Origin: Candidatus Nomurabacteria bacterium
Lineage (GTDB): Bacteria; Patescibacteriota; Minisyncoccia; Phycocordibacterales; UBA9973
Assembly (NCBI GenBank): GCA_943354905.1
Contig: CALRDL010000003.1
Span: forward strand, 1-63,154
Direction: 5' to 3'
Length of the DNA stretch: 63,154 nt
Part shown: positions 63 through 11,459 of the stretch, piece after piece
Layout of the letters: every line of letters starts with the position of its first letter
Numbering within the stretch: the stretch's first letter is position 1
Program-made: the position numbers and the translations under genes
The notes under the pieces: generated by a model
Seen by the model: the letters and a program-made list of their open reading frames with translations, nothing else
Database searches by the model: none
Told to the model about the DNA's origin: nothing

Positions 63-783
63 CTAACCAAATACAATTTGAGAGAGTTCGCGACTATGCA
101 AAAGTGAAGGATTTAGAAGAAATGTTGCACTAATGGCAGAAGTCGGGACCGCATCGGCAATACTGCTTTGATTCTTGTTAGTTACAGAATATAATACTCC
201 ACCATAAGAAGCTGTAAGAGCGCCAGCTGCTGCCAAAGTACTGGCAGCGCTAATTGATATAGCACATGGTACCAATATTATTCCGCCACCAGCCAATGAT
301 GCTGCACAAATTCCCGTGCCAGTAACTGCAACCATAGCGCCAGCCGCTGCCGCACCCCCACCACCAGTAATGGCAAGAACTGACATATATTGTACAGTAC
401 TATTGCCAGTTTGTCTGCCTAGTTGAAAAGGTAAGGAATTTATTTTATTAATATCGCTACCCATTATCTTGGAAGCATTAGAAGCCACATTAAACAGTGC
501 GGAGTCAACGATTTGATAGCTAGTTCCAGCTACGAAAAGAGTGCCACCTTTAACAGTATTTAAAATGCCAGGAACAGCATCAACAACATTTTTTGCAACA
601 TTAACTACCACTGTTTTTACTACTGTGCCAACTGTTTTTGCAATACTTCCCACCACCTTCCCTATCCCTACCACCACATTCTTGATGGCGGGCACTACTG
701 TGTTCACTACAGAAGTTGGAGCCTTGGGAACAGAGACAGCTGGCTTCGCAGGAGCATTCGTATTCGCCACAGCTTGCTTGGTG
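63..783 (-). pseudogene. Displaced, start-less polymorphic-toxin C-terminal cassette 2 (RHS junction homology plus Gly/Ala-rich membrane tail)
   Basis: ORF 63-770 opens only at a GTG. Nt 651-783 match 125/133 positions of 4494-4626 in the full-length RHS gene (shared peptide TNAPAKPAVSVPKAPTSVVNTVVPAIKNVVVGIGKVV). The sequence then diverges into ITGGGGAAAAGAMVAVTGTGICAASLAGGGIIL... The upstream leader box carries ATA instead of ATG, followed by a stop. Confidence 0.6.
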
Positions 784-784
784 A

Positions 785-795
785 AGGCAAGACCT
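785..795 (-). repeat. Copy of the 11-mer core aggtcttgcct (plus strand reads aggcaagacct) at the upstream edge of cassette-2 homology
   Basis: Exact 11-mer also present at 23518-23528, 33719-33729, 36726-36736 and 39237-39247. This copy is in the opposite orientation and lacks an extended stem. Confidence 0.5.
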
Positions 796-938
796 CATAA
801 GATAGTTATGAAAAGAACATCTGGACTTACATCACATCGACCTGAATGCCGTGGGGTTATCGTGAATGGTGGCTGACCTTATTAAATAAGGCTCGTCGGT
901 GTTGGACACCCGAAGTTACCCGAAGTTATTGGAGATTT

Positions 939-1343
939 TTATTTTAATTTAAAGCTAGTAATATTTTCTCTAAAGTAACTACCAAATGCTACTAACTCAA
1001 TACAATCAATATACCCGTTTTCCCCCCAGAGTAGTGTATCGCCACCAAGCTCAATATCATCTGATTCTATCTTTGGGCCATATATAGGAAACCCTTTTTT
1101 TATATCATTTTTTTTAACACCGAAACTAGAAACAACGAATTCTCTATTTGTAAAAATAGAAAAATCAATCGGTTTAAGATTGCGAGGGACCTTCAAAGTT
1201 ATATAAAAACCTACTTTAGTCCACTCTCTTTTTACAAGTTTAGCGGATTTTATCTGAGTAGTAAGGTTAAGATCTTTATAGTTTTCTATAAACCATTCTA
1301 AGATGGCTTTTTCTAGTTTGTTAAATTTAGTATCATTGTCCAT
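939..1343 (-). CDS. Putative immunity protein for toxin cassette 1
   Basis: Small ORF. Started at the internal ATG (MDNDTKFNKLEK...), it begins 16 nt after the cassette-1 stop, which is the position and size expected of a cognate immunity gene. No family recognised. Confidence 0.5.
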   Translation of the reverse strand: MDNDTKFNKLEKAILEWFIENYKDLNLTTQIKSAKLVKREWTKVGFYITLKVPRNLKPIDFSIFTNREFVVSSFGVKKNDIKKGFPIYGPKIESDDIELGGDTLLWGENGYIDCIELVAFGSYFRENITSFKLK

Positions 1344-1359
1344 AAACTTTAGATAAATT

Positions 1360-1917
1360 CTATTTAATAAACATTGTACTAAGTCGAGGAATCCCATCAA
1401 TTATTATTACTCGGGCAGTAACTATATAATTTCCAATTTTAATCGGCACGTCAGATACAATACTTTCTGGAATTTTTGAAGTAATACTATTTAATCCTTT
1501 TATAACAGCCTGTATCACATTTTCTTTACTCCCTAACTCTTTTACTAGAAGATCTAATTTATGACTTGGGTTACCGAAAATATGTATCATTTTGGTTGGA
1601 TCCTTTGTTACATAGTTCACAGCTTTATTTAATGCATCTTGAGAAAATTTCAAAGTCTGCACCGTCGGACTCTTACCAAACTTAGTAAGTATATCACTCA
1701 TTTTATAGCTTGCCCAAGTGACAGGACCGGCAATCGTTGTTATTACCACAGCTACAAATCCCACAGGACATGCAAAGTAACAAGCGACCACGCCTCCAAT
1801 TATCACCACAGTTCCGGCGATATAGGGGTGTTTCTTTACTACATTTCCTACCACCTTCCCTATCCCTACTGCCACATCTGAATGCCATGGGTTCTCATAA
1901 ATGGTGGCTGACCCCAT
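1360..1917 (-). CDS. Free-standing polymorphic-toxin-like protein (cassette 1): TM hairpin homologous to the RHS C-terminus plus an unrelated tail
   Basis: ATG at 1915-1917 is preceded by AGGAGG (reverse complement of 1930-1935, 12-nt spacing). GIGKVVGNVVKKHPYIAGTVVIIGGVVACYFACPVGFVAVVITTIAGPVTWASYKMSDILTKFG is colinear with RHS aa 1398-1468. A different tail of about 105 aa follows (IHIFGNPSHKLDLLVKELG...). Confidence 0.65.
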   Translation of the reverse strand: MGSATIYENPWHSDVAVGIGKVVGNVVKKHPYIAGTVVIIGGVVACYFACPVGFVAVVITTIAGPVTWASYKMSDILTKFGKSPTVQTLKFSQDALNKAVNYVTKDPTKMIHIFGNPSHKLDLLVKELGSKENVIQAVIKGLNSITSKIPESIVSDVPIKIGNYIVTARVIIIDGIPRLSTMFIK

Positions 1918-1985
1918 TAACCCCTTTATCCTCCTTTATCCTCTCGATTATTTTTTTAATGAGTGTTGCAACGGGATTCATATAT

Positions 1986-2762
1986 TTAAAATTCTACAGA
2001 GCTAATATACTCTCTAAACATTTTCACCTTCTTGCTATCTTCAGAGTTGATAAGGAAAGGTTCGATATCTTGAGCAAGGTCATTAAAATCAAGATCAGCT
2101 GTTTGTTCGAGCAGGGCCTTCTTTAGTTCATCTGCATTCTTAACACCGAGCTTTGCCTCAAGGTATGCATAATTTGGCTTTGTCTGTGGAATAAGGAAGA
2201 CGATATCAAAAAAGTCACGACCCTTTGCTCGCTTACGGTTTAGTGCCGCATAAATCTTTTGCGATAGAAGGATGTCGATAGGGGCGGTAAATATCTGAGT
2301 AAAAACATCAAACTTGTTGAGAATCTTGGTATCTTTCTTGTAGTCAAAAACCTGAGGGACCGTATCGATCTGAATCAGAATCTTTTCTTCCTGCATGTCG
2401 GACATATCATTATCAAAGAGTACCTTTGGCATCCTGATGTATGAACGATATGCACCCTTGAAAACATTTTTCATCTCTACCTCATAACCCTGGAGCTCGA
2501 GACCTTTCTTCACTTCATTTGCCAGGTCGGCGAACTGTTCTTCGGTAAGCTTGAAATTGTCAAAATCGAGATCCTCGGAGAACCTACTGTTGTTGTATAC
2601 GATTCGAAGAGTCGTGCCACCAAGGAATATGAGGTCCTGTGCATACTTTGAGTTGAAAATGATTTCAAGAATCTTGTACTGCAAATACTCTCTCAAGATA
2701 TTTCGCTTGAAAGGCTTTTGATTGTCAGGATAGTACTGTTCTATATTCTTGAGACTAAGCAT
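1986..2762 (-). CDS. AbiEii/DUF1814-type nucleotidyltransferase toxin
   Basis: 258 aa. The motif LIFLGGTTLRIVYNNSRFSEDLDFD is typical of AbiEii. It sits 2 nt downstream of an AbiEi-like gene. Confidence 0.75.
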   Translation of the reverse strand: MLSLKNIEQYYPDNQKPFKRNILREYLQYKILEIIFNSKYAQDLIFLGGTTLRIVYNNSRFSEDLDFDNFKLTEEQFADLANEVKKGLELQGYEVEMKNVFKGAYRSYIRMPKVLFDNDMSDMQEEKILIQIDTVPQVFDYKKDTKILNKFDVFTQIFTAPIDILLSQKIYAALNRKRAKGRDFFDIVFLIPQTKPNYAYLEAKLGVKNADELKKALLEQTADLDFNDLAQDIEPFLINSEDSKKVKMFREYISSVEF

Positions 2763-2764
2763 GA

Positions 2765-3388
2765 TTAGTTAATGGCTGTATTAATAAATTGTAAAAACTT
2801 CTTAGCGCGCTTTTCGAGAGCCTTGCTATGGAAAGCCTCTAGATACTTGTTGAACTTTTCCATATTTAGCCTCTCCTTTAATTCAGAAGTATTGAATCTC
2901 ATCCCTTCAAACGATTCATAGTCATTAATCTTTGAGTTAAAATATAAATAATCCAAAACAGCTTTTTCTACCTCAGCAATCTGATAATGATGACCACCAT
3001 GTTCTCTCAGATCATATCCAAACATAAGATCCGGCTGTACATGTCTGTAAATAAAGTCACCGACAGGGGTCTTTATGTTCTTTGTATTTTGAGATGTGAC
3101 TGAAGTGACTCCATATACAGCTTCAGGAATTAATCCGTAAATTGATAGGGCCATTTCAAGAGAGACGTACGAAGGCTCATAGATGCGATTGGCTATAGTA
3201 AATAGAATCTTTTCATCTATCTGTAGATCAGAAAATATATAAAAGCCTTGGCGGATCTTCTTTACATAATCCTTCTTTTGCCATTCGCTCAATCTCTGCT
3301 TATGGAACGACGAATCAACCTTTTCAATATCCTTTATTGAAAAAACTAGAAAGTCTTTTAGTTGGCTCTTTAGGTCTAAATATTGCAT
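2765..3388 (-). CDS. AbiEi-type transcriptional antitoxin
   Basis: 207 aa, directly upstream of the AbiEii-like gene. Size and gene order fit type IV TA AbiE. Confidence 0.6.
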   Translation of the reverse strand: MQYLDLKSQLKDFLVFSIKDIEKVDSSFHKQRLSEWQKKDYVKKIRQGFYIFSDLQIDEKILFTIANRIYEPSYVSLEMALSIYGLIPEAVYGVTSVTSQNTKNIKTPVGDFIYRHVQPDLMFGYDLREHGGHHYQIAEVEKAVLDYLYFNSKINDYESFEGMRFNTSELKERLNMEKFNKYLEAFHSKALEKRAKKFLQFINTAIN

Positions 3389-3548
3389 ATTATCTTCAAG
3401 TCTTCCGTTTTTTAGGAATACTTAGCGATATTATAGCATAAGCCTATTTGGACGACAACTCACTTTTACGGAGCAAGATTGTGTACAAGGATAAAGAACT
3501 TACACTAATTAATTAAGAATGTGGAAAGAAGTTTTTTCATATCGCTAC

Positions 3549-3932
3549 CTATTTATAATTTTTAAGTCGAGATTTACCTGTAATTTCAAACCCAATCAAA
3601 ACCTTACCCATAAAATTATTCCTAGCAAAATTAAACAATTCTTTTGATTCATATAATCCTTCAAAAATCTCAACATAAAATAGATCAAGAGATTTTGGGT
3701 CACTATCTGAATCTTCAAATAATTCATTAGTGAATACTATAAATTTTTTTATTATTGGATCTTTTTCACCATTATTTTCCAAAATCTTTTTAATAAAATC
3801 AGTAAAATAGCCATAAACCACATGTGGTAACTCTAGATCACTTTCAGCTCTTTTAAATTCTTCGGAATCTTTGAATTCTGGAAATCTCTTAAGCGTAATC
3901 TTTATTATATCTTCATATTTATAAGTATTCAT
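3549..3932 (-). CDS. Putative immunity protein of the main RHS toxin
   Basis: 127-aa acidic ORF starting 7 nt after the RHS stop (intergenic gap of 6 nt). No signal peptide and no recognised family. Confidence 0.5.
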   Translation of the reverse strand: MNTYKYEDIIKITLKRFPEFKDSEEFKRAESDLELPHVVYGYFTDFIKKILENNGEKDPIIKKFIVFTNELFEDSDSDPKSLDLFYVEIFEGLYESKELFNFARNNFMGKVLIGFEITGKSRLKNYK

Positions 3933-3938
3933 AAATAG

Positions 3939-6900
3939 TTATTTAATTAAACTCACAGCATTTTTAAGTTGTTTTAATAATAAATTAGCTATTTCAATAT
4001 CACTTTGAGAAAGGCCTGGGCTCATAAGAATTTTTTCTAGGCTAGTAATTCGTTCCGTTGCAGTAATTATGTGAGTTGATCCCCCAACTAATTTTCCAGT
4101 TTCAGCATAAAACTTAACAGCTCCTGCTGTACCACCAGGCAACTCATCAGTTATTTTATATAAATAACTGAAACCATCTTTAAGTTTTTGATTCTGTATT
4201 ACATTAGCAATTATTTCTCTTTCAGGTGTTGTAAGTAATTTTGTAGATGCACCATTTAAAAGTCTAGTTGCGTTTGCAATTAAACTACTCCCCACATTCC
4301 CAAACTTCGCCACTATATCAGCTATTTTAGCACTCGCCCAAGTAACCCCTGTACCAACAGTCGTAACCACACCAGCAACAAATCCTGGAGGACACCAAGC
4401 GACACAAGACGCGACACCGGCAATGACCACCACAGTGCCAGCGACATAGGGGTGTTTCTTCACTGCATTTACTACCGTGCCAACCCCTCCCATCACCACC
4501 TTCCCTATCCCTACCACCACATTCTTGATGGCAGGCACTACTGTATTCACCACAGAAGTTGGAGCTTTAGGAACAGAGACAGCTGGTTTTGCAGGAGCAT
4601 TCGTAGTCGCCACAGCTTGCTTGGTGGTGGCTACGGCGAGAGTGGTGAGGGCGTTAGATACTTTATTTACAGCCAGAGATAATACTCTGGTGGCGGTTTT
4701 ACCTAGAGCGTCGGTTACTTTCAGGGTGAAGGATGATGAAGTGATACTTGTCGATTTACCAGATAGAGTACCACCGGTTGTCAAAGATACTCCTCTCGGC
4801 AGAGAACCGCTTTCCAGAGTGACCTTATATGGTGCTTTGCCTCCTTGGATGGCAACAGATTGCGAGTAAGTCGTATTTTGCTTAGCGAAAGGGAGAGAAA
4901 TGGTACTAATAGAGAGAATTGGCGCAATTGGGATTGGAGGCGCATTAACTATCGGATTGGGAATAGTAGGTTTTTTGGGAGTTGGTTGGATAACAGGCTT
5001 ACTTAATAGTGTTGGTTTAATTATTGGCGCTGGAACTGGCTTAACCTTGACCACAGGTGCTGGTATAGATTTGATAACAGGTGCTGGAACTGGTTTAACA
5101 ATAGGCGCTGGAGATGGTTTAGGAGCTGGCGCTCTAGGTGCTGGCGCTGGTTTAGGTGCTGGCGCTGGAGCACGTCTGGGCGCTGCATGTGCGGTTTTAA
5201 TGGTAAAGAAACCAAAAATATTTTTCAGTAATTTTGAACGCATTGAGGTCTTGTCTTTGGTCTGGACTTCATCTGTTTTCTGTGAATTGGGGATAGTGGA
5301 TGGCTCCGCCACAGGGATGTTAACCGAGGATTCGTAGGTATCAGTTTTAATTAATTCGCGGTCGTCTTGATTGAGTAATTGGTAAGCTGCGTCAGCTCCA
5401 GTGTGTATTTCTATCACAGCATTAAACTGATTTTGAAGTAAGTTGTTTTTATCATCTCTTGCTTGTCGACGCTCGGATACGTCAGCGGAAACTTGAGCTG
5501 GTTGTTCCACTCTTACAGTTGAATCTTCATTGGCATAGACATTTACCAACTTAAAACCAAACCAGCCAAAAATCTTATTTTTCAACCATGAAACCGGGTC
5601 CGTGGGGTCAGTGGTAGAAGTTGGCTTATCAATCAGCCGTTGATCTTCTTGCGTCCGCTCGGGAAGAGTTGTGGATTCTTCTCCTGGCGGGGATTGATTT
5701 AAGTTTGCCGGTAGTGCTTGATGCAGAGAAGATGAGGTCGAAGTTATTGCTTCTTGCGCTTTCGCGGTTGCGTTGGCAACCAGCAGTCTTTCCACCTGCT
5801 TTTGGTTGTAAGCAATCAAGTCGTCAATTAAACTATTAGTTCTGTCAATTGCGGCCACAGTTAAATCATAAGCCAATTCTAGACGCTGACGATCCTCGTT
5901 GGTAATAACATTGGCCAGGCGGTCAACAGCATTAGCGGCTAACTGTTGTAAATCGGCAATAGTTTCGGTCGCAGAAGCCAAGATTGCACGGATAGACATA
6001 CCTTGATTTGATTTCTCTGCGGCATGGCCAGTGGGATCACTGAAATTAATCGGATCATTCAGACCATAGATGTATTCATTTTGAGTGAGTGTATTTTCCA
6101 GTTCTCCCGGTAATGGATCCTTACTGTAAAATCTTCCAAGGGCGGGGTCATAGGCCCGAGGTCCGAGGAGATAAAGTTGTGCTTCCTGGTCATAGAAATA
6201 TCCAGCATAAAGAAAATCCGAATATATGGAATTATCAAGAGATGATTTCTGAGCGCCAAATTCATCATAGGAGAATTTGGCGACGATGTTTGAGTTATCA
6301 TCCACCAGAGCGACAATGGAGTTATGGCTATCGCGAGTTACGGTATAGACTTTTTTGTCTACCGCCATAGCGATTATTTTTCCTTTGGCGTCATAGAAAT
6401 ACTGGCGGATAATTTTTCCACTGCCATCTTTGACTGTGGTCATATTTTGGCCGTCATAAGTGAAGTTCAGAGTGTTGTTGCTCGTTTCTCTTTTTATCCT
6501 GCGATGCAGAGAATCTAGAGTGTATGAAATCACTTTGCCATCTGGTAGGATGATAGAATTTATATATCCAAATGCGTCATAGCCGTACCCTGTCTCGCTC
6601 TTGGTGTCGCCTTTGATATCTGTTTTCTTCACCAGTTGGCCAGCCTTGTCGTGTTCATAAATTGTCGCTGATCCGTCCGGATATACTGTCCTGGTTAGCT
6701 GATTGCCATCATATTCGTAAGTGATGCGGCCAGAAACACCTTCCTTCACCATTCGATTGCCCCGTTCATTATGGGTATAGCTGGTGATTACACCAGTGCT
6801 GTCAGTCACTTTACTCAATTGATTTGACTCATCATAAGTAAATTTGTTCTTTTGGCCAAAACTATCCGAGCGGGAAGAATATTGTTTACTGGATGTATAA

Positions 6901-8702
6901 GCGTAATTCACCGAGTAAATATCGACGCCAGCACGCGAAATAACTCGTAACCCCAGAGGACTATCGCTAGAATCATAGTCATAAAATGTTTCCTCGCCCT
7001 TTTGATTCACCGAAGAACGGAGTACTCCCAGAGAATCGTAAGTGTTTTTTACTTCAATCTTCTTTTGAACCTTTTTGACTTTGGTCTCCGGTTTGACTGG
7101 TGCCTCTAAAGTCTCTTTGGGTGGAGGAGGTAGTTCTAGTATGTTTATCTCGGGAGCGGGAATGAAAACTTCTGCAGATTCGGCGCTAGTTTCACCTTCG
7201 GCAAAAGCGTAGGATAGATTCCTCTCCCAGATTCCAATCAATTTATTTTGCAGCCAAGAGATTGGACCACTCACAGTTTCGGGCGCTTCTTTTATTTCTG
7301 TTTTTGCTTCCTCTACTATTACTTCTTTCACTTCTGTCTTTACTTCCGTCTTTACTTCTGTCGTCGTTTCCTCTACTTTTGTCTTTGTTCTTTCTTCCTT
7401 TACTTCTTCTGCTATCGTTTCCTTTACTTCTACCTTCACTTCCGTCTTTACTTCTGCTTTCACTTCTTCTACTGTCACTTCCTCTTCAAACGGCAAGGTA
7501 ATGGAAAGACCGCTCGGGTTATTATTTTTGTCATATGAAACTTTTGTCTCTTGGGTGACGGAAGAAGTATTAGCAAAGGCGATCAACTTGGCGCCTCGGT
7601 ACAGAGAGGCCACTTTTGACTTTATTTTTCTAAAAATGGAGTGAAAAAGAGAAACACTACCCATCTCCTTGGTGGAGTTGTCTCTTTCTATAACTTCTGA
7701 CTTTTTCTCTACCATAGCGCTTTTCTCTAAAATCTTCGTTCCAATCACACTGCCCAATTCATCATACTGATACTGAATCTCATTATCATCGTCATTGAAC
7801 TGCCCTACTAGGTTACCAGCCTCATCATATTGAAATCTTGTTTCGCTGTCATTTGTGGCGATGCGTTCTATCTCCCCGCCCTCGGAATAGGCAAGGTTTA
7901 CTTGTTTGGCACTTTCGTCGGCAAAAGCAAAGTTTAAGAGAGGATATATAGTACGTTCCAAAAAGGAAAGCTTGCTGGTGTCCACTGGCCTTTCCACATA
8001 CATACTGGTAAGTCGGCCCTTGGCATCATAGGCATAGTAAGTGATACTGCCATCGGGTTTGGTAATCTTGATGGGCTCGCCAGCCTCGTTGTATTCAGCC
8101 AGGGTGGCATTACCCCTCTCGTCTGCTACAATAATCGGCCGGTCCTCTTCATTGAGAGTGATTTTCTCTATTTCGCTTTTGGTATCCGTGATGATAAGAG
8201 TATTGTTCTGTTCGTTGTAAACCACCCCGTCGTATTTATCCGCTAGCTTCACACCTAGAGTGGCTGGGGCGGATGCTCCGCCTCCTTCACCCCAAGTGGA
8301 AGTTTGTGCTTGAGCTATTTCTTTGTTTTCCTGATTTTCTGTCTGGGCGACTTCCTCATTCTTTTCTGTAATTTTTTCCGCTATTTCTTCAAAATTTTCT
8401 TTGACTGCTTCTAAAAGACCGGCCGGGGTTTCAGTTTTTAGTTTAAGGGCCGCATTTTTTAATACTTTTTTAGACTTTTGAGCGATGGTACTTTCTGCAG
8501 TTCTATCTTTATCTTTATTTGCGTATTCTGAAAGATATCTCTGTTTGGCATTTTCTTTCTTAAAAACGGTTTCCCGGCCAGAGAAGTCTAGGAATTCAGG
8601 GATTAGCGGTTGGAGAGGAGCGAAGATCATTATGAAAATAACCAGCCCAGAGATAAAATTGGGTAGTAATTTACTCCATTTATATTTATTCTTTTTTTTC
8701 AT
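3939..8702 (-). CDS. Membrane-anchored RHS/YD-repeat polymorphic toxin with a long post-core C-terminal extension
   Basis: N-terminal TM (LVIFIMIFAPL). Many YD repeats (YDAKGRLTS, YQYDELGSV, FTYDESNQLSKVTD, YEYDGNQLTRTVYPDGS, YEHDKAGQLVKKTD). RHS core end YDPALGRFYSKDP...YIYGLNDPINFSDPTGH, with the DPTGH codons at nt 6024-6038. This is followed by about 695 aa: a helical region, a PAPAPKP linker, a He_PIG-like Ig domain, two TM helices and a tail. Confidence 0.85.
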   Translation of the reverse strand: MKKKNKYKWSKLLPNFISGLVIFIMIFAPLQPLIPEFLDFSGRETVFKKENAKQRYLSEYANKDKDRTAESTIAQKSKKVLKNAALKLKTETPAGLLEAVKENFEEIAEKITEKNEEVAQTENQENKEIAQAQTSTWGEGGGASAPATLGVKLADKYDGVVYNEQNNTLIITDTKSEIEKITLNEEDRPIIVADERGNATLAEYNEAGEPIKITKPDGSITYYAYDAKGRLTSMYVERPVDTSKLSFLERTIYPLLNFAFADESAKQVNLAYSEGGEIERIATNDSETRFQYDEAGNLVGQFNDDDNEIQYQYDELGSVIGTKILEKSAMVEKKSEVIERDNSTKEMGSVSLFHSIFRKIKSKVASLYRGAKLIAFANTSSVTQETKVSYDKNNNPSGLSITLPFEEEVTVEEVKAEVKTEVKVEVKETIAEEVKEERTKTKVEETTTEVKTEVKTEVKEVIVEEAKTEIKEAPETVSGPISWLQNKLIGIWERNLSYAFAEGETSAESAEVFIPAPEINILELPPPPKETLEAPVKPETKVKKVQKKIEVKNTYDSLGVLRSSVNQKGEETFYDYDSSDSPLGLRVISRAGVDIYSVNYAYTSSKQYSSRSDSFGQKNKFTYDESNQLSKVTDSTGVITSYTHNERGNRMVKEGVSGRITYEYDGNQLTRTVYPDGSATIYEHDKAGQLVKKTDIKGDTKSETGYGYDAFGYINSIILPDGKVISYTLDSLHRRIKRETSNNTLNFTYDGQNMTTVKDGSGKIIRQYFYDAKGKIIAMAVDKKVYTVTRDSHNSIVALVDDNSNIVAKFSYDEFGAQKSSLDNSIYSDFLYAGYFYDQEAQLYLLGPRAYDPALGRFYSKDPLPGELENTLTQNEYIYGLNDPINFSDPTGHAAEKSNQGMSIRAILASATETIADLQQLAANAVDRLANVITNEDRQRLELAYDLTVAAIDRTNSLIDDLIAYNQKQVERLLVANATAKAQEAITSTSSSLHQALPANLNQSPPGEESTTLPERTQEDQRLIDKPTSTTDPTDPVSWLKNKIFGWFGFKLVNVYANEDSTVRVEQPAQVSADVSERRQARDDKNNLLQNQFNAVIEIHTGADAAYQLLNQDDRELIKTDTYESSVNIPVAEPSTIPNSQKTDEVQTKDKTSMRSKLLKNIFGFFTIKTAHAAPRRAPAPAPKPAPAPRAPAPKPSPAPIVKPVPAPVIKSIPAPVVKVKPVPAPIIKPTLLSKPVIQPTPKKPTIPNPIVNAPPIPIAPILSISTISLPFAKQNTTYSQSVAIQGGKAPYKVTLESGSLPRGVSLTTGGTLSGKSTSITSSSFTLKVTDALGKTATRVLSLAVNKVSNALTTLAVATTKQAVATTNAPAKPAVSVPKAPTSVVNTVVPAIKNVVVGIGKVVMGGVGTVVNAVKKHPYVAGTVVVIAGVASCVAWCPPGFVAGVVTTVGTGVTWASAKIADIVAKFGNVGSSLIANATRLLNGASTKLLTTPEREIIANVIQNQKLKDGFSYLYKITDELPGGTAGAVKFYAETGKLVGGSTHIITATERITSLEKILMSPGLSQSDIEIANLLLKQLKNAVSLIK
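7293..7490 (-). repeat. In-frame tandem E/V/K/T-rich repeat inside the RHS gene
   Basis: The DNA shows reiterated cttctgtcttta/cttccgtcttta-type units. The protein reads EEVKAEVKTEVKVEVKE...TEVKTEVKTEVKE (aa 405-470). Confidence 0.8.
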
Positions 8703-8730
8703 TTATATACTGATGAGTAATAATACAAAA

Positions 8731-8758
8731 GCCACCCGGACTAGAGGTGGCTTTTTTT
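8731..8758. terminator. GC-rich hairpin with flanking A/T runs between tatD and the RHS gene
   Basis: gccacc-cggactaga-ggtggc, followed by T7 on the plus strand and preceded by A4. It could terminate the tatD transcript on the minus strand. Confidence 0.4.
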
Positions 8759-8974
8759 AATAAATACTAAAAGAGAAAAAATGATTGCAAAATAAACATT
8801 TTGGGGACTTTTTAGCCCCAAGAGTTTGCTAAGCGGGAGTTCAATTGGAATTGATTGAACCATATATCCCAACCCTAACAAATCAGAAATTAAATGTCAA
8901 TAGTTTTTTTATTTTTTTATCAAGGGGCAACCCATATTCACCTCCCCTGACAAGGGGAGACTGGAGGGGTTGAA

Positions 8975-9847
8975 TTATATTCCAAAGACTCGCTTGGCAT
9001 TGGCTACGATAGCTTCGGCTACTTCTTCTTCTCTCAAACCTTTTATTTCAGCAATCTTTTTGACTATCTCTTTTACATAAACAGGCTCATTTCGCTTGCC
9101 TCTATGGGGTACAGGCGACACATAAGGTGAATCAGTCTCCGACATTATCCTGTCTAAGGGCGTATTTCTAATAACTTCATCGTAATCATGAGTAAATGTG
9201 ATAACTCCAGTAAAAGACAATGTGAAACCAAAATCCAAAAATGCTTTAGCTTCTTCTAGCCCTCCCGCAAAAAAATGGACATCACCTCGAACTTTTGAAT
9301 ATTGTTTCAAAATTTCTAATGCATCAAAATATGCGTTTCGGATTGCTTGTGGTGAGCTTGCTTGCCCTAAACTTGTTGAAGGAGTCGAACCATTGCGTAT
9401 ATGCAACATAAGAGGTTTGTTAAATTCATTAGCAAGTTCTATCTGGCTTATAAAGTCTTCCTTTTGTTTTTTCATAGACGCTTCGTCGCATCTAAAATAA
9501 TCCAACCCACACTCTCCTACCCCCACTACTTTTGGATCTTTCAAAAGCTCTCGATATTTTTCTTTATCAAAATTTTCTCCACGAGAAGTAAATCCCACTC
9601 CACCAACGCCCAATTCTTTTTCATCATGAAAAGAAGCTCCAGTGTGGATCGGATGAAGTCCGATGATAGCGTAAACACCTTCTTCATATTTATTGGCAAG
9701 CTCTATCGCACTCCTCGAAGTGTCTATTTGTGTCCCAACATTGATAACCCAAGTATTATTATCCAAAGCACGTCGAATCACCTCGTCTCGATCCTCGTCG
9801 AAAGCTTTAAAATTCACATGGCTATGGATGTCGATGTATTTTGGCAT
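8975..9847 (-). CDS. tatD: TatD-family metal-dependent hydrolase/DNase
   Basis: The start MPKYIDIHSHVNF, GECGLDYF and the overall layout fit TatD. About 18 extra aa (STPSTSLGQASSPQ) map to a GC-rich patch. Confidence 0.85.
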   Translation of the reverse strand: MPKYIDIHSHVNFKAFDEDRDEVIRRALDNNTWVINVGTQIDTSRSAIELANKYEEGVYAIIGLHPIHTGASFHDEKELGVGGVGFTSRGENFDKEKYRELLKDPKVVGVGECGLDYFRCDEASMKKQKEDFISQIELANEFNKPLMLHIRNGSTPSTSLGQASSPQAIRNAYFDALEILKQYSKVRGDVHFFAGGLEEAKAFLDFGFTLSFTGVITFTHDYDEVIRNTPLDRIMSETDSPYVSPVPHRGKRNEPVYVKEIVKKIAEIKGLREEEVAEAIVANAKRVFGI

Positions 9848-9910
9848 GTTGTTTATTATAATAATACCACTTTTCTACTATCCAACATTATAAATTATAC
9901 CCCCACCTCG

Positions 9911-9932
9911 CCTCCCCCTACTTAGGGGGAGG
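9911..9932. repeat. GC-rich palindromic element, family A (cctcccccta-ct-tagggggagg)
   Basis: Perfect 10-bp arms. Near-identical copy at 37380-37401. Confidence 0.85.
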
Positions 9933-9976
9933 AAAAATCTCTACATAGCAATATGCCATGAATTTGTATTTCTTAG

Positions 9977-10000
9977 CCCTCACCCTATGTAGGGGGAGGG
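9977..10000. repeat. Family A palindrome variant (ccctcaccct-atgt-agggggaggg)
   Basis: One arm mismatch. Lies 13 nt downstream of the metG stop. Confidence 0.7.
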
Positions 10001-10013
10001 TTGGGTGGGGGTA

Positions 10014-11459
10014 TTATTCCTTCCTCATAAACAAAGGTTTCTCTGGTTTTTTATTTTCTTTAATTAATTTTTTTAATAAAATATTTGTCTCTGGCATTAT
10101 TGGATTAAGCATCCGAGTGATACGATACAAACGTACAACCATACTTGTTATGAATTCTTTTCCCTTTTTTTCGTCCACTTTAATAACTTTAAATGGTTCA
10201 GTTTCTTGAATAAATTTATCTAACTCGCCTATTTCGTGCCAAACAATATCCACCGCTTGTTTAATATCAAATTTTTCAAAAAAACTAAAATATTCTGTAA
10301 AATCATCGTCCTCTCTAATCTCTGGACACTTTTCTAAATATTTCTCTGAAAGAGTCAAAATTCGTGAAGCTAAATTCCCCAATCCATTCGCAAGTCCTGC
10401 ATTGTATGCTTCTTTAAATCTCTCCATAGTAAAAGGACTGTCCTCGAAATTAGAAATTTCTTTCGCTAAAAAAAATCGGAGTGCATCTGTGCCATATTCT
10501 TTCACCACTTCCACGGGATCTATAACATTTCCTAATGTTTTTGACATTTTTATTCCACCTTCGGCTGTGATAAATCCATCGATAATTATTTGATAGGAAT
10601 TTGGCAGACCGGCAGCCATAAGCATGGATTGCCACATCGCAGATTGAAAACGCAGATTGTCTTTACCGCAATATTGAGTCGGAGTTCCATTTTTCCAATA
10701 TTTATCAAAAGTTTCTACATCGTCCGGCCATCCTAAGGTCGAAATGTAACTTGTAAGTGCATCAAACCAGACATACATAACGTGATTCGGATCTCCAGGA
10801 ACTTCTATTCCCCAAGGCATTTTGGATTTCAAGCGCGAAATAGAAAAGTCCTGCAAACCCCTTTCAACAAAAGCTTTTATTTCATTAAATCGAAAATCAG
10901 GAACAACAAAACTTGGGTTTTCTGCATAAAATTTTAATAATTTTTCTCCGAATTCAGAATATTTAAAAAAATAATTTTCTTCTTCGATAATTTCAAGTTC
11001 ACGACTTGTGTGAATAGAACATTTCCCATCAACTAATTCAGAATCACTCTTACTCTCTTCGCAGCCAACGCAATACTTAGCTTGATAATTCTTCTTGTAA
11101 ATATACCCATTGTCGAAAACTCTTTTCCAAAATTCCAGAGCTGTTTTTACATGTTTTTCTTCTGTGGTACGAATAAAACGAAGATCTGGATCCATGCCGA
11201 AAATTTTTACAGATTCTTTGAAATGCAAAAAACTCTCATCAACAAATTCCTGCGGAGTTTTACTGAGAGATGTAGCTTTTTCGTGGATTTTCATACCATG
11301 CTCATCTGTGCCTGTGTTAAAGAACACGTCAAACCCTATAAGTTTTTTGTAACGTACAACAATATCTGCTCGAATAAATTCGAGAGCATGGCCCATATGA
11401 AGATCGGCGTTAACGTAAGGAAGTGTAGTTGTCAGGTAAAAACTTTTCTTGTCAGTCAT
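10014..11459 (-). CDS. metG: Methionyl-tRNA synthetase
   Basis: PYVNADLHMGHALE (HIGH) and KMSKTLGN (KMSKS) motifs; 481 aa. Confidence 0.9.
   Translation of the reverse strand: MTDKKSFYLTTTLPYVNADLHMGHALEFIRADIVVRYKKLIGFDVFFNTGTDEHGMKIHEKATSLSKTPQEFVDESFLHFKESVKIFGMDPDLRFIRTTEEKHVKTALEFWKRVFDNGYIYKKNYQAKYCVGCEESKSDSELVDGKCSIHTSRELEIIEEENYFFKYSEFGEKLLKFYAENPSFVVPDFRFNEIKAFVERGLQDFSISRLKSKMPWGIEVPGDPNHVMYVWFDALTSYISTLGWPDDVETFDKYWKNGTPTQYCGKDNLRFQSAMWQSMLMAAGLPNSYQIIIDGFITAEGGIKMSKTLGNVIDPVEVVKEYGTDALRFFLAKEISNFEDSPFTMERFKEAYNAGLANGLGNLASRILTLSEKYLEKCPEIREDDDFTEYFSFFEKFDIKQAVDIVWHEIGELDKFIQETEPFKVIKVDEKKGKEFITSMVVRLYRITRMLNPIMPETNILLKKLIKENKKPEKPLFMRKE

Follow-up and report, generated by a model that had tools for sequence, protein, structure and literature searches.

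Does a bacterium of the candidate phyla radiation (CPR) carry a polymorphic toxin locus of the RHS/YD type, with a main toxin gene, its immunity gene and displaced toxin cassettes, and if so, how is this locus built? The question is raised by the first 8.7 kb of contig CALRDL010000003.1, assigned to Candidatus Nomurabacteria; the whole contig, 63 154 nucleotides (nt), was analysed and is called the window below, and it ends inside the array in question. A first-pass annotation made from the letters alone had proposed such a locus, and every feature that it named could be found where it had been placed in the list of open reading frames (ORFs). We consider it likely that the region is a strain-specific island of Paceibacteria encoding a surface-exposed RHS/YD polymorphic toxin system. 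A search of the literature on Rhs and polymorphic toxins in CPR/Patescibacteria found nothing specific, and the locus bears on how these episymbionts compete with each other and how they harm or control host cells.

The main gene and its parts are listed here, with amino-acid (aa) positions in its product.

8702..3939, minus strand: main rhs gene, 1587 aa, intact ORF
8589..8678, minus strand: N-terminal hydrophobic segment, aa 9-38, Kyte-Doolittle (KD) window 2.0-2.2
7503..8255, minus strand: YD-repeat block 1, aa 150-400, with the best RHS_repeat/YD_repeat_2x stretch at aa 204-234
7038..7502, minus strand: low-complexity insert rich in E, K, V and T, aa 401-555, separating the two YD blocks
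6270..7037, minus strand: YD-repeat block 2, aa 556-811, with an NF041261 RHS_core stretch at aa 548-781
6024..6269, minus strand: RHS-associated core domain, aa 812-893, ending in NDPINFSDPTGH
5184..6023, minus strand: post-core region, aa 894-1173 (280 aa), holding two of five AxA segments described below
4917..5183, minus strand: proline-rich linker, aa 1174-1262, with PAPAPKP-type DNA repeats at 5025-5185
4665..4916, minus strand: He_PIG immunoglobulin (Ig)-like domain, aa 1263-1346 (PF05345, 1.1e-08, 35.8 bits for a cutoff of 24)
4494..4664, minus strand: recombination junction, with TKQAVATTNAPAKP and, further on, VVPAIKNVVVGIGKVV; includes the 138-nt repeat 4494-4631
4302..4493, minus strand: hydrophobic pre-toxin module of 'type A', aa 1404-1467, with two transmembrane (TM)-like helices and KKHPYVAG..C..WC
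3942..4301, minus strand: candidate main toxin tail, aa 1468-1587, a basic six-helix domain of an unnamed family

The 1587-aa product is a true RHS/YD protein, as had been proposed, since both repeat and core hidden Markov models (HMMs) score above their curated cut-offs: PF05593 RHS_repeat in five stretches (E 4e-28, 97.6 bits for a cutoff of 22) and TIGR03696 Rhs_assc_core over its full length at aa 812-893 (2.4e-17, 63.2 bits for a cutoff of 32.5), to which the NCBIfam scan adds TIGR01643 YD_repeat_2x at 6.4e-24. The core-end motif quoted in the first-pass annotation, YDPALGRF..DPINFSDPTGH, lies at aa 851-893, and YxYD motifs of block 1 are at aa 223, 290 and 311. Two related loci help to read the rest of the protein, L086 with a 1376-aa RHS and L088 with a 1541-aa RHS of CPR type, the latter recovered when metagenomes were scanned with the RHS core and the post-core region together. 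Over aa 536-901 the window protein is 41% identical to the RHS of L086, and the post-core region, for which Pfam and NCBIfam hold no family match (E up to 10), can be aligned with both relatives at ~40-49% identity. In all three proteins the core motif, NDPINFSDPTGH in the window and ending there at aa 893, has H as its last residue instead of the L of PxxxxDPxGL. Characterised Rhs proteins have their aspartyl autoprotease motif at this end of the core (PMC8636562). The N-terminal motif I(F/L)APL(Q/P)P is conserved in L086, and we infer that the hydrophobic segment is a Sec-type signal or signal anchor with a role in export. The low-complexity insert contains tandem-like DNA repeats of the EVKTEVK type at 7291-7485, and both relatives have a Pro/Val-rich insert at the equivalent position; L088 also has a Pro-rich linker, a longer one, in the same place as the window. 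The coding low-complexity tracts at 7038-7502 and 4917-5183 could differ in length between strains.

Behind the main gene stands the small gene that had been placed in the immunity position.

3549..3932, minus strand: candidate gene for immunity; its acidic 127-aa product is a DUF7674 protein, and 6 nt separate its start from the RHS stop codon

The product of this gene has an isoelectric point (pI) of 5.16 and no hydrophobic segment, and it matches DUF7674. The main tail has a pI of 9.3, and its AlphaFold2 model is an all-alpha domain of six helices, with a predicted local distance difference test score (pLDDT) of 88.7 and a predicted template modelling score of 0.82. A basic tail with an acidic partner free of hydrophobic segments would suit a toxin whose action and neutralisation are both cytoplasmic. 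When the final 247 aa of the RHS protein served as query, P0001 alone was found (57% identity over the tail), the product of a gene in locus L002. A profile of the tail used in a full HMMER search reached much further, to 693 cluster representatives at E<=1e-3, among them 183 at E<=1e-10.

It is by their linkage that tail and partner are taken as a putative toxin-immunity pair. A DUF7674 gene lies directly 3' of the tail in eight of eight contexts (the window, L002, L086, L087 and L167-L170); for each of four distant members of the tail family that were checked (P0079, P0013, P0132 and P0045, the last not an RHS protein), DUF7674 was the next gene. Homologs of the 127-aa protein, P0005 (83% identical) and P0006 (72%), follow tail homologs in L086 and L087, and P0006 as well as the neighbours in L167-L169 carry precomputed PF24722 hits. 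In L002 the first 22 codons of the gene after P0001 are 82% identical to those of the window's gene (the product begins MHTFKYEDIIDITLERFPEFKD, that of the window MNTYKYEDIIKITLKRFPEFKD). The L002 segment, 1-1904, is an independent orphan array: a main toxin ending in a DNase domain, PF21111 CDI_toxin_EC869_like (1e-10), is followed by a 168-aa ORF with weak similarity to CdiI, by the orphan P0001, in which a tail of the window type stands behind a different shared junction (YLxKGDxxSAGASMxAIxPFxGT), and by DUF7674. In L086 some ten small genes form an array after the RHS gene, and among them sits an 82-aa remnant of the tail (73% identical over 71 aa) with DUF7674. Literature searches for DUF7674 gave nothing specific.

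Members of the tail family carry the match nearly always at their extreme C-terminus. The long ones have SpvB, FG-GAP, TcdB_midN or RHS domains, one has a PT-TG pre-toxin domain directly before the tail, and in at least 40 members the RHS core end (..NNP....DPxG) is found ~125-400 aa from the C-terminus, mostly 150-270. In tail numbering, the invariant residues are G56 and H77; G57, A61, T68, G69 and R84 come close to invariance. A HEPN-type RNase was considered and dropped, the Rx4-6H motif being missing from the conserved columns.

These carriers matter for another way of looking at the protein, in which the RHS would be a structural adhesin or host-attachment fibre whose two ends sit in the producer membrane, by an N-terminal anchor and a C-terminal TM hairpin, with the tail as an anchoring domain in the cytoplasm or at the surface and DUF7674 as its chaperone or partner instead of an antidote. 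The helical region, Pro-rich linker and He_PIG Ig domain do resemble a surface fibre, hydrophobic segments are present at both protein ends, the C-terminal fragment exceeds what can be encapsulated, and the tail resembles none of the known toxins; a precedent is offered by teneurins, whose C-terminal domain lies outside the YD shell (PMC8636562). However, the same tail ends unrelated carriers, including PT-TG and Tc-like SpvB/TcdB_midN RHS proteins; tail and partner occur as displaced or truncated orphans, as is typical of toxin/immunity cassettes and not of anchors; and the guanine-plus-cytosine (GC) content of tail and partner gene differs from that of the gene body. We thus regard a fibre as distinctly improbable and retain the toxin reading of the tail.

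Further downstream, the array continues with displaced cassettes.

1360..1917, minus strand: orphan 1, 185 aa, with the GIGKVV junction and a type A module, followed by ~106 aa of basic, unrelated tail
939..1343, minus strand: 134-aa ORF where an immunity gene for orphan 1 would be expected, starting 16 nt after the orphan 1 stop
771..938, minus strand: decayed spacer upstream of orphan 2, with stop codons in all frames
63..788, minus strand: orphan 2 (235-aa ORF 770..63), with the junction at 651-788, a 'type B' module and a 27-aa stub

The similarity of the pre-toxin junctions of the main gene and both orphans extends to the DNA and is much greater than chance would give: 651-788 and 4494-4631 are 93% identical over 138 nt, with sharp borders on both sides, and 1731-1852 and 4355-4476 are 72% identical over 122 nt. 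In protein terms, aa 1-31 of orphan 2 are 97% identical to the RHS, and aa 25-81 of orphan 1 are 63% identical; for the type A module, identity between the RHS and orphan 1 is 57-63%. The RHS of L088 carries the same junction (VVPAITNVAVGIG), with the motif VVPAIxNVxVGIG conserved.

Orphan 1 has its own ATG with AGGAGG upstream, and the small ORF that had been assigned to it is indeed present behind it. The orphan 1 protein was found identical in three more assemblies and gave no match in a PDB sequence search; the model of its tail, made without an alignment, is of low confidence (pLDDT 53; helices, then three strands), and the Foldseek hits that it returned, Nsp15 EndoU, MqsR and RelE at E of about 1, were not taken as evidence. 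The 134-aa ORF lacks a hydrophobic segment and has no family match in Pfam or NCBIfam at E up to 10; its one likeness, a weak one at 24% identity and a pairwise E of 0.002, is to an ORF of 114 aa that belongs to the orphan array of L086. When the tails, the junction, the post-core region and this ORF were scanned against both databases at the same limit, the sole hit was PRANC at 4.6e-4, below threshold and judged spurious.

The first-pass annotation spoke of two extra C-terminal modules with unrelated tails, which is right for orphan 1; the 'tail' of orphan 2 turns out to be a conserved pre-toxin module. This Gly/Ala-rich hydrophobic stretch, of type B, has its counterpart in the module just before the terminal domain of the L088 RHS, with 48% identity and an E of 6e-51 over orphan 2 aa 16-208. 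In L088 that module is followed by a terminal domain of ~109 aa, a 119-aa ORF and an IS200-like transposase; in orphan 2 the homology stops at aa 208 and gives way to 27 unrelated residues and a stop, the contig itself ending 62 nt beyond. Since the further ~109-aa domain of L088 is missing in the window, orphan 2 is best described, from this comparison, as a junction plus pre-toxin module devoid of a toxin domain. A Tse5-like pore-forming toxin was considered for the Gly/Ala-rich part and set aside as the less probable reading, since in L088 the module has a terminal domain of its own after it, and then an ORF placed like an immunity gene. A metagenome scan with orphan 2 gave no relatives. 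Upstream of both orphans lies a short element, 854-885, matching 1889-1920 (32 nt at 84%, extendable to ~55 nt); the copy before orphan 2, a remnant of an orphan 1-type leader, is no longer in frame and has degenerated. It is probably what is left of an earlier junction of the orphan 1 type that a subsequent insertion overwrote, which would mean that displacement events occurred in layers.

Between the main pair and the orphans, at 1986-3388, the array is split by two genes that had been missed initially.

2765..3388, minus strand: AbiEi antitoxin/regulator, 207 aa (PADLOC AbiEi 8e-65; NF047376 8e-11)
1986..2762, minus strand: AbiEii nucleotidyltransferase toxin, 258 aa (PF08843 1.4e-19; PADLOC AbiEii 3.9e-96)

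The two genes are adjacent, 2 nt apart, and have a promoter-like element of their own (TTGTCG-17-TATAAT at 3458-3430). AbiE is best read, on these matches, as an independent type IV toxin-antitoxin/abortive-infection module inserted in the array.

To which organism does the array belong, and how did it get there? The neighbouring methionyl-tRNA synthetase (MetRS) gene, 10014-11459, encodes a protein 70-80% identical to MetRS of metagenome-assembled genomes labelled Candidatus Nomurabacteria, Paceibacterota or Patescibacteria, which confirms the 'CPR-like' character proposed earlier and assigns the genome, by homology, to the Paceibacteria (CPR), close to Nomurabacteria. The gene order perm363-MetRS-TatD is conserved in 74-77 of the loci of 80 relatives. 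The RHS gene, the small ORFs, AbiE and the orphans have no match within 10 kb downstream of MetRS-TatD in these 80 relatives; the cassettes occur in none of the 80 loci, contrary to what would be seen if they were conserved core genes. Of the ten closest relatives examined, nine have conserved rpsF-like and ssb genes 30-214 nt behind TatD, and in six of the nine these are succeeded by efp, recA and ftsK-like genes; the window contains none of these five kinds of gene. Because the array is absent from the 80 relatives, where TatD adjoins rpsF-ssb, it is by comparison a strain-specific island of at least 8.9 kb inserted between the two.

The site directly after TatD is variable among Paceibacteria. 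The exception among the ten closest relatives, L032, has four unrelated genes between TatD and rpsF-like/ssb, and its segment 12348-16093 carries EamA, a 283-aa gene and HATPase. Homologs of these three flank the RHS array of L086 (12018-16358), and since the post-TatD genes of L032 thus have counterparts bordering an RHS array elsewhere, the comparison suggests that the post-TatD site is a shared insertion hot spot. Homology of the TatD-RHS intergenic region to that of relatives was considered as well; it amounted to a likeness in the arrangement of a promoter-like element, was not significant and was discarded.

The same data bear on the possibility that the array comes from another organism and was joined to the housekeeping genes as an assembly chimera. 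There is a GC step at the boundary: GC is 0.42-0.47 in the RHS body, against 0.35 for the remainder of the contig. The window stops within the array, and the ENA contig L001, from a second assembly and with an identical RHS gene, breaks 8 nt before the RHS start, with further breaks between the immunity gene and AbiE. On the other hand, L086, the nearest RHS relative for which flanking sequence is available, has at its borders the homologs just mentioned of genes of L032, a Paceibacteria-type locus, the tail (0.32) and the 127-aa gene (0.25) are low in GC, as is the host, the small intergenic spaces and the gene sizes are typical of CPR, and breaks at island borders are expected from strain heterogeneity. 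A chimera is very improbable in our estimation, and we keep to an island of the Paceibacteria genome. The GC content changes sharply within what is one transcription unit, between 3549-4301 and 4302-8702. An Rfam scan of the window found zero RNA families.

Taken together, the logic of a main gene plus orphan rhs array, as first put forward, is borne out by the RHS HMMs, the tail family, the DUF7674 linkage and the junction DNA homology. There are, nevertheless, several points that weigh against the reading of the locus as a working toxin system. The structural check recommended at the outset was only half rewarding: the main tail gave a confident model, and neither it nor the tail of orphan 1 has a PDB match. 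For the main tail, the best Foldseek hit against the PDB had an E of 0.69, the tail and its 48-member profile gave no PDB sequence match, and Pfam had no family for any of the 48 members, so that the tail has no relative of known activity detectable by such comparisons. The DUF7674 match of the 127-aa ORF is marginal (PF24722, 27.7 bits for a gathering threshold of 27). In a search of 5.8e9 proteins orphan 1 found no homolog except itself, and its pairing with the 134-aa ORF is a candidate that rests on position. The search with the last 247 aa of the RHS found no junction relatives outside this strain, and no actual swap has hence been observed. The core motif ends in DPTGH, not in the canonical DPxGL, and autoproteolysis is no more than predicted. 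At the start of the main gene no Shine-Dalgarno sequence is visible, and 25 nt upstream of its start codon lies a stable 11-bp hairpin with a T-run (8727-8755, minus strand), which could be a terminator, an attenuator or a mark of the island border. Finally, orphan 2 lacks both the toxin domain and a recognisable ribosome-binding site, a sign that the array is at least partly decaying.

This last point leads to the question of whether the whole island could be a decaying relic of horizontal transfer, the main ORF being intact by chance, the system out of use and the orphans debris rather than a reservoir. Its absence from the 80 relatives would fit, and so would the GC of the RHS body, which resembles that of L086 (0.466) and L088 (0.44) and not the 0.35 of the host. 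Apart from having lost its toxin domain, orphan 2 has a stop codon just upstream of its region of homology, behind the spacer with its decayed leader remnant at 854-885; the AbiE insertion interrupts the array; and the main gene is without an obvious ribosome-binding site. But a stop-free ORF of 4.8 kb is unlikely to last unless selection maintains it, additional assemblies, made from three other samples, yielded RHS, immunity and orphan 1 proteins of the same sequence, the gap of 6 nt couples the immunity gene tightly to that of the RHS, and orphan 1 and its partner are intact, with AGGAGG upstream. We therefore hold it to be improbable that the island as a whole is a relic, and go on with the reading of a toxin system in use.

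How, then, would the toxin be presented? In characterised Rhs proteins the toxin comes directly after the PxxxxDPxGL motif (PMC8636562, PMC10684867); encapsulated Rhs toxins are of ~15-16 kDa, with cavities of ~32 000-35 000 cubic angstroms (PMC10684867), and the barrel of Rhs1 spans residues 420-1262, about 840 residues (PMC8636562). The RHS of the window departs from this plan, its variable toxin neither abutting the core motif nor being part of a fragment small enough for encapsulation. The polymorphic boundary is not the core motif itself but the second junction (VVPAIxNVxVGIG), ~500 aa past it: the variable part starts at aa ~1404, 510 aa after DPTGH, and the tail 575 aa beyond the core motif. 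The post-core fragment amounts to 694 aa and 73 kDa, while the two YD blocks together make up ~510 aa, split by the 155-aa insert. With such a fragment and so short a YD region, most of the C-terminal region cannot fit inside the shell. The post-core region would thus probably form an external stalk, made of a helical region, the Pro-rich linker and the Ig domain, that presents the toxin cassette.

This long-stalk layout recurs in two metagenomic relatives. The RHS of L088 has the DPTGH ending, the post-core region and also the Pro-rich linker in common with the window; in L086 the first two are found again, a charged Lys/Ala-rich stretch taking the place of the linker, and the He_PIG domain was not seen in either RHS. 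A further observation is that the window RHS contains five internal amphipathic, signal-peptide-like segments that end in AFA, VYA or AHA and are then followed by acidic or polar residues.

~7920-7983, minus strand: AxA segment, aa 240-261, ending at aa 261
~7572-7655, minus strand: AxA segment, aa 350-377, ending at aa 377
~7200-7271, minus strand: AxA segment, aa 478-501, ending at aa 501
~5532-5603, minus strand: AxA segment, aa 1034-1057, ending at aa 1057
~5184-5249, minus strand: AxA segment, aa 1152-1173, ending at aa 1173

They have counterparts at homologous positions in L086 and L088 and may be processing sites or membrane-interacting helices. One may speculate that the three proteins constitute an RHS subfamily associated with Paceibacteria, in which an uncaged toxin sits at the tip of an external stalk of ~500 aa, built of a helical region and a Pro-rich linker and, in some, an Ig domain, directly behind a membrane-inserting module, the AxA segments being sites of processing or membrane interaction, and which serves as a contact weapon of an attached episymbiont that could act on its host; we propose this tentatively, as a doubtful extension.

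The cassettes themselves are modular at two levels. Each consists, after the junction, of a hydrophobic module and then a terminal domain of ~110-120 aa, except that orphan 2 has no terminal domain. The type A module (two TM-like helices and KKHPY[VI]AG..C..C; KD peaks at aa 1417-1443 in the main RHS) bears two different tails, one in the main gene and one in orphan 1; type B is shared by orphan 2 and L088; and P0007 joins the module known from the L086 RHS to a tail of the main type. In P0014, P0015 and P0017, each of which begins with the RHS core-end motif, an HP..G..hydrophobic..CxxxC segment precedes the same tail, and a hydrophobic segment is found within 150 aa before the tail in 32 of the 74 longer members of the family. 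The locus is a natural example of two-level cassette shuffling, with pre-toxin module and toxin domain moving independently. We infer that the hydrophobic module helps the toxin to cross the target membrane; alternatively, it may anchor the RHS C-terminus in the membrane of the producer.

A mechanism can be sketched from these elements. The RHS protein would be exported by Sec through its N-terminal hydrophobic segment, in the manner of WapA; this route is proposed because of that segment and because a PAAR or VgrG domain was not detected on the protein. The hydrophobic module upstream of the tail would carry the toxin across the membrane of a target cell, in the cytoplasm of which the tail would act, the target being a competitor or the host of the episymbiont. 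In the cytoplasm of the producer, the acidic DUF7674 protein, which has neither signal peptide nor TM segment, would neutralise the basic tail. Homologous recombination, either across the 138-nt junction or inside the type A module, could swap the expressed toxin/immunity pair for a stored one. The AbiE pair would have landed in the array independently and may stabilise it.

In kind, the locus is an rhs array with a main gene plus orphans and probable Sec-dependent export, and the long-stalk layout sets it apart. The rhs arrays of enterobacteria (Salmonella, E. coli and Dickeya; PMC3150448, PMC3967940) likewise combine a YD protein, a core domain, a variable tail and an adjacent small gene with downstream fragments whose 3' homology could allow replacement of the expressed tail by recombination, and there too the GC of the tail is unlike that of the body; the window differs in the position of the boundary, at VVPAIxNVxVGIG and not at PxxxxDPxGL, in its CPR host and in the inserted AbiE pair. 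WapA of Bacillus subtilis and Streptococcus suis (PMC12704120) is surface-associated, with RHS repeats behind an N-terminal Sec-type signal (predicted here), no type VI secretion system (T6SS), a C-terminal toxin and an adjacent immunity gene, for which the window has a candidate. However, the toxin of WapA directly follows the RHS core, whereas the 73-kDa region with linker, Ig domain and hydrophobic module intervenes in the window, and cell-wall-binding repeats were not detected in the window RHS. WapA was reportedly presented by Koskiniemi and colleagues in 2013 as a Sec-dependent RHS toxin of monoderm bacteria. The organism studied here would, judging by the envelope type described in the CPR literature, have no outer membrane.

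The T6SS Rhs effectors Rhs1, RhsA and Tse5 (PMC8636562, PMC10684867) have in common with the window a YD shell with a C-terminal aspartyl-protease plug domain, and hydrophobic segments proposed to aid translocation of the toxin across the target membrane. They differ in enclosing toxins of ~15-16 kDa in a barrel of ~840 residues, compared to ~510 aa of YD repeats and 694 aa after the core in the window, where the motif ends in DPTGH and the hydrophobic module is C-terminal, beside the toxin, and not N-terminal. Neither a PAAR nor a VgrG domain was found by the Pfam and NCBIfam scans, in which the search for T6SS parts was confined to the RHS protein. To our knowledge, a T6SS is not expected in CPR bacteria.

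The CdiA-CT and cdi orphan modules (PMC3150448) offer a parallel for the bipartite variable region, in which the upstream module pairs freely with toxin domains, and for orphan pairs downstream; in L002, the tail/DUF7674 pair is itself an orphan behind a CDI_toxin_EC869-like toxin. In contrast to cdi, the carrier in the window is an RHS protein and not a two-partner-secretion filament, there is no VENN motif, and the upstream modules are strongly hydrophobic. The concept of an entry domain for CdiA-CT is said to go back to Willett and co-workers in 2015. With teneurin YD shells, the common point is a C-terminal domain that is probably outside the shell (PMC8636562), and the RHS of L086 has a precomputed PF25023 TEN_YD-shell hit; teneurins differ in being eukaryotic signalling proteins, with neither immunity genes nor orphan cassettes. 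The locus, being in kind a main-plus-orphan rhs array, should surprise specialists moderately; it offers an RHS layout with the toxin probably far outside the shell. The 120-aa all-alpha domain, of an unnamed 693-cluster family, and its DUF7674 partner also make a candidate toxin/antidote pair that can be cloned, which gives DUF7674 a role that can be tested.

Two minor observations concern the surroundings of such pairs in related loci. In L086, four genes for DUF805 membrane proteins lie at 7173-11035 among the small ORFs of the RHS orphan array, possibly conferring immunity to membrane-acting toxins. An IS200-like Y1 transposase (PF01797) is encoded just 3' of the toxin-immunity pair in two unrelated loci, at 5268-5816 in L088 and at 9916-10575 in L168, the locus of the SpvB/RHS protein P0013.

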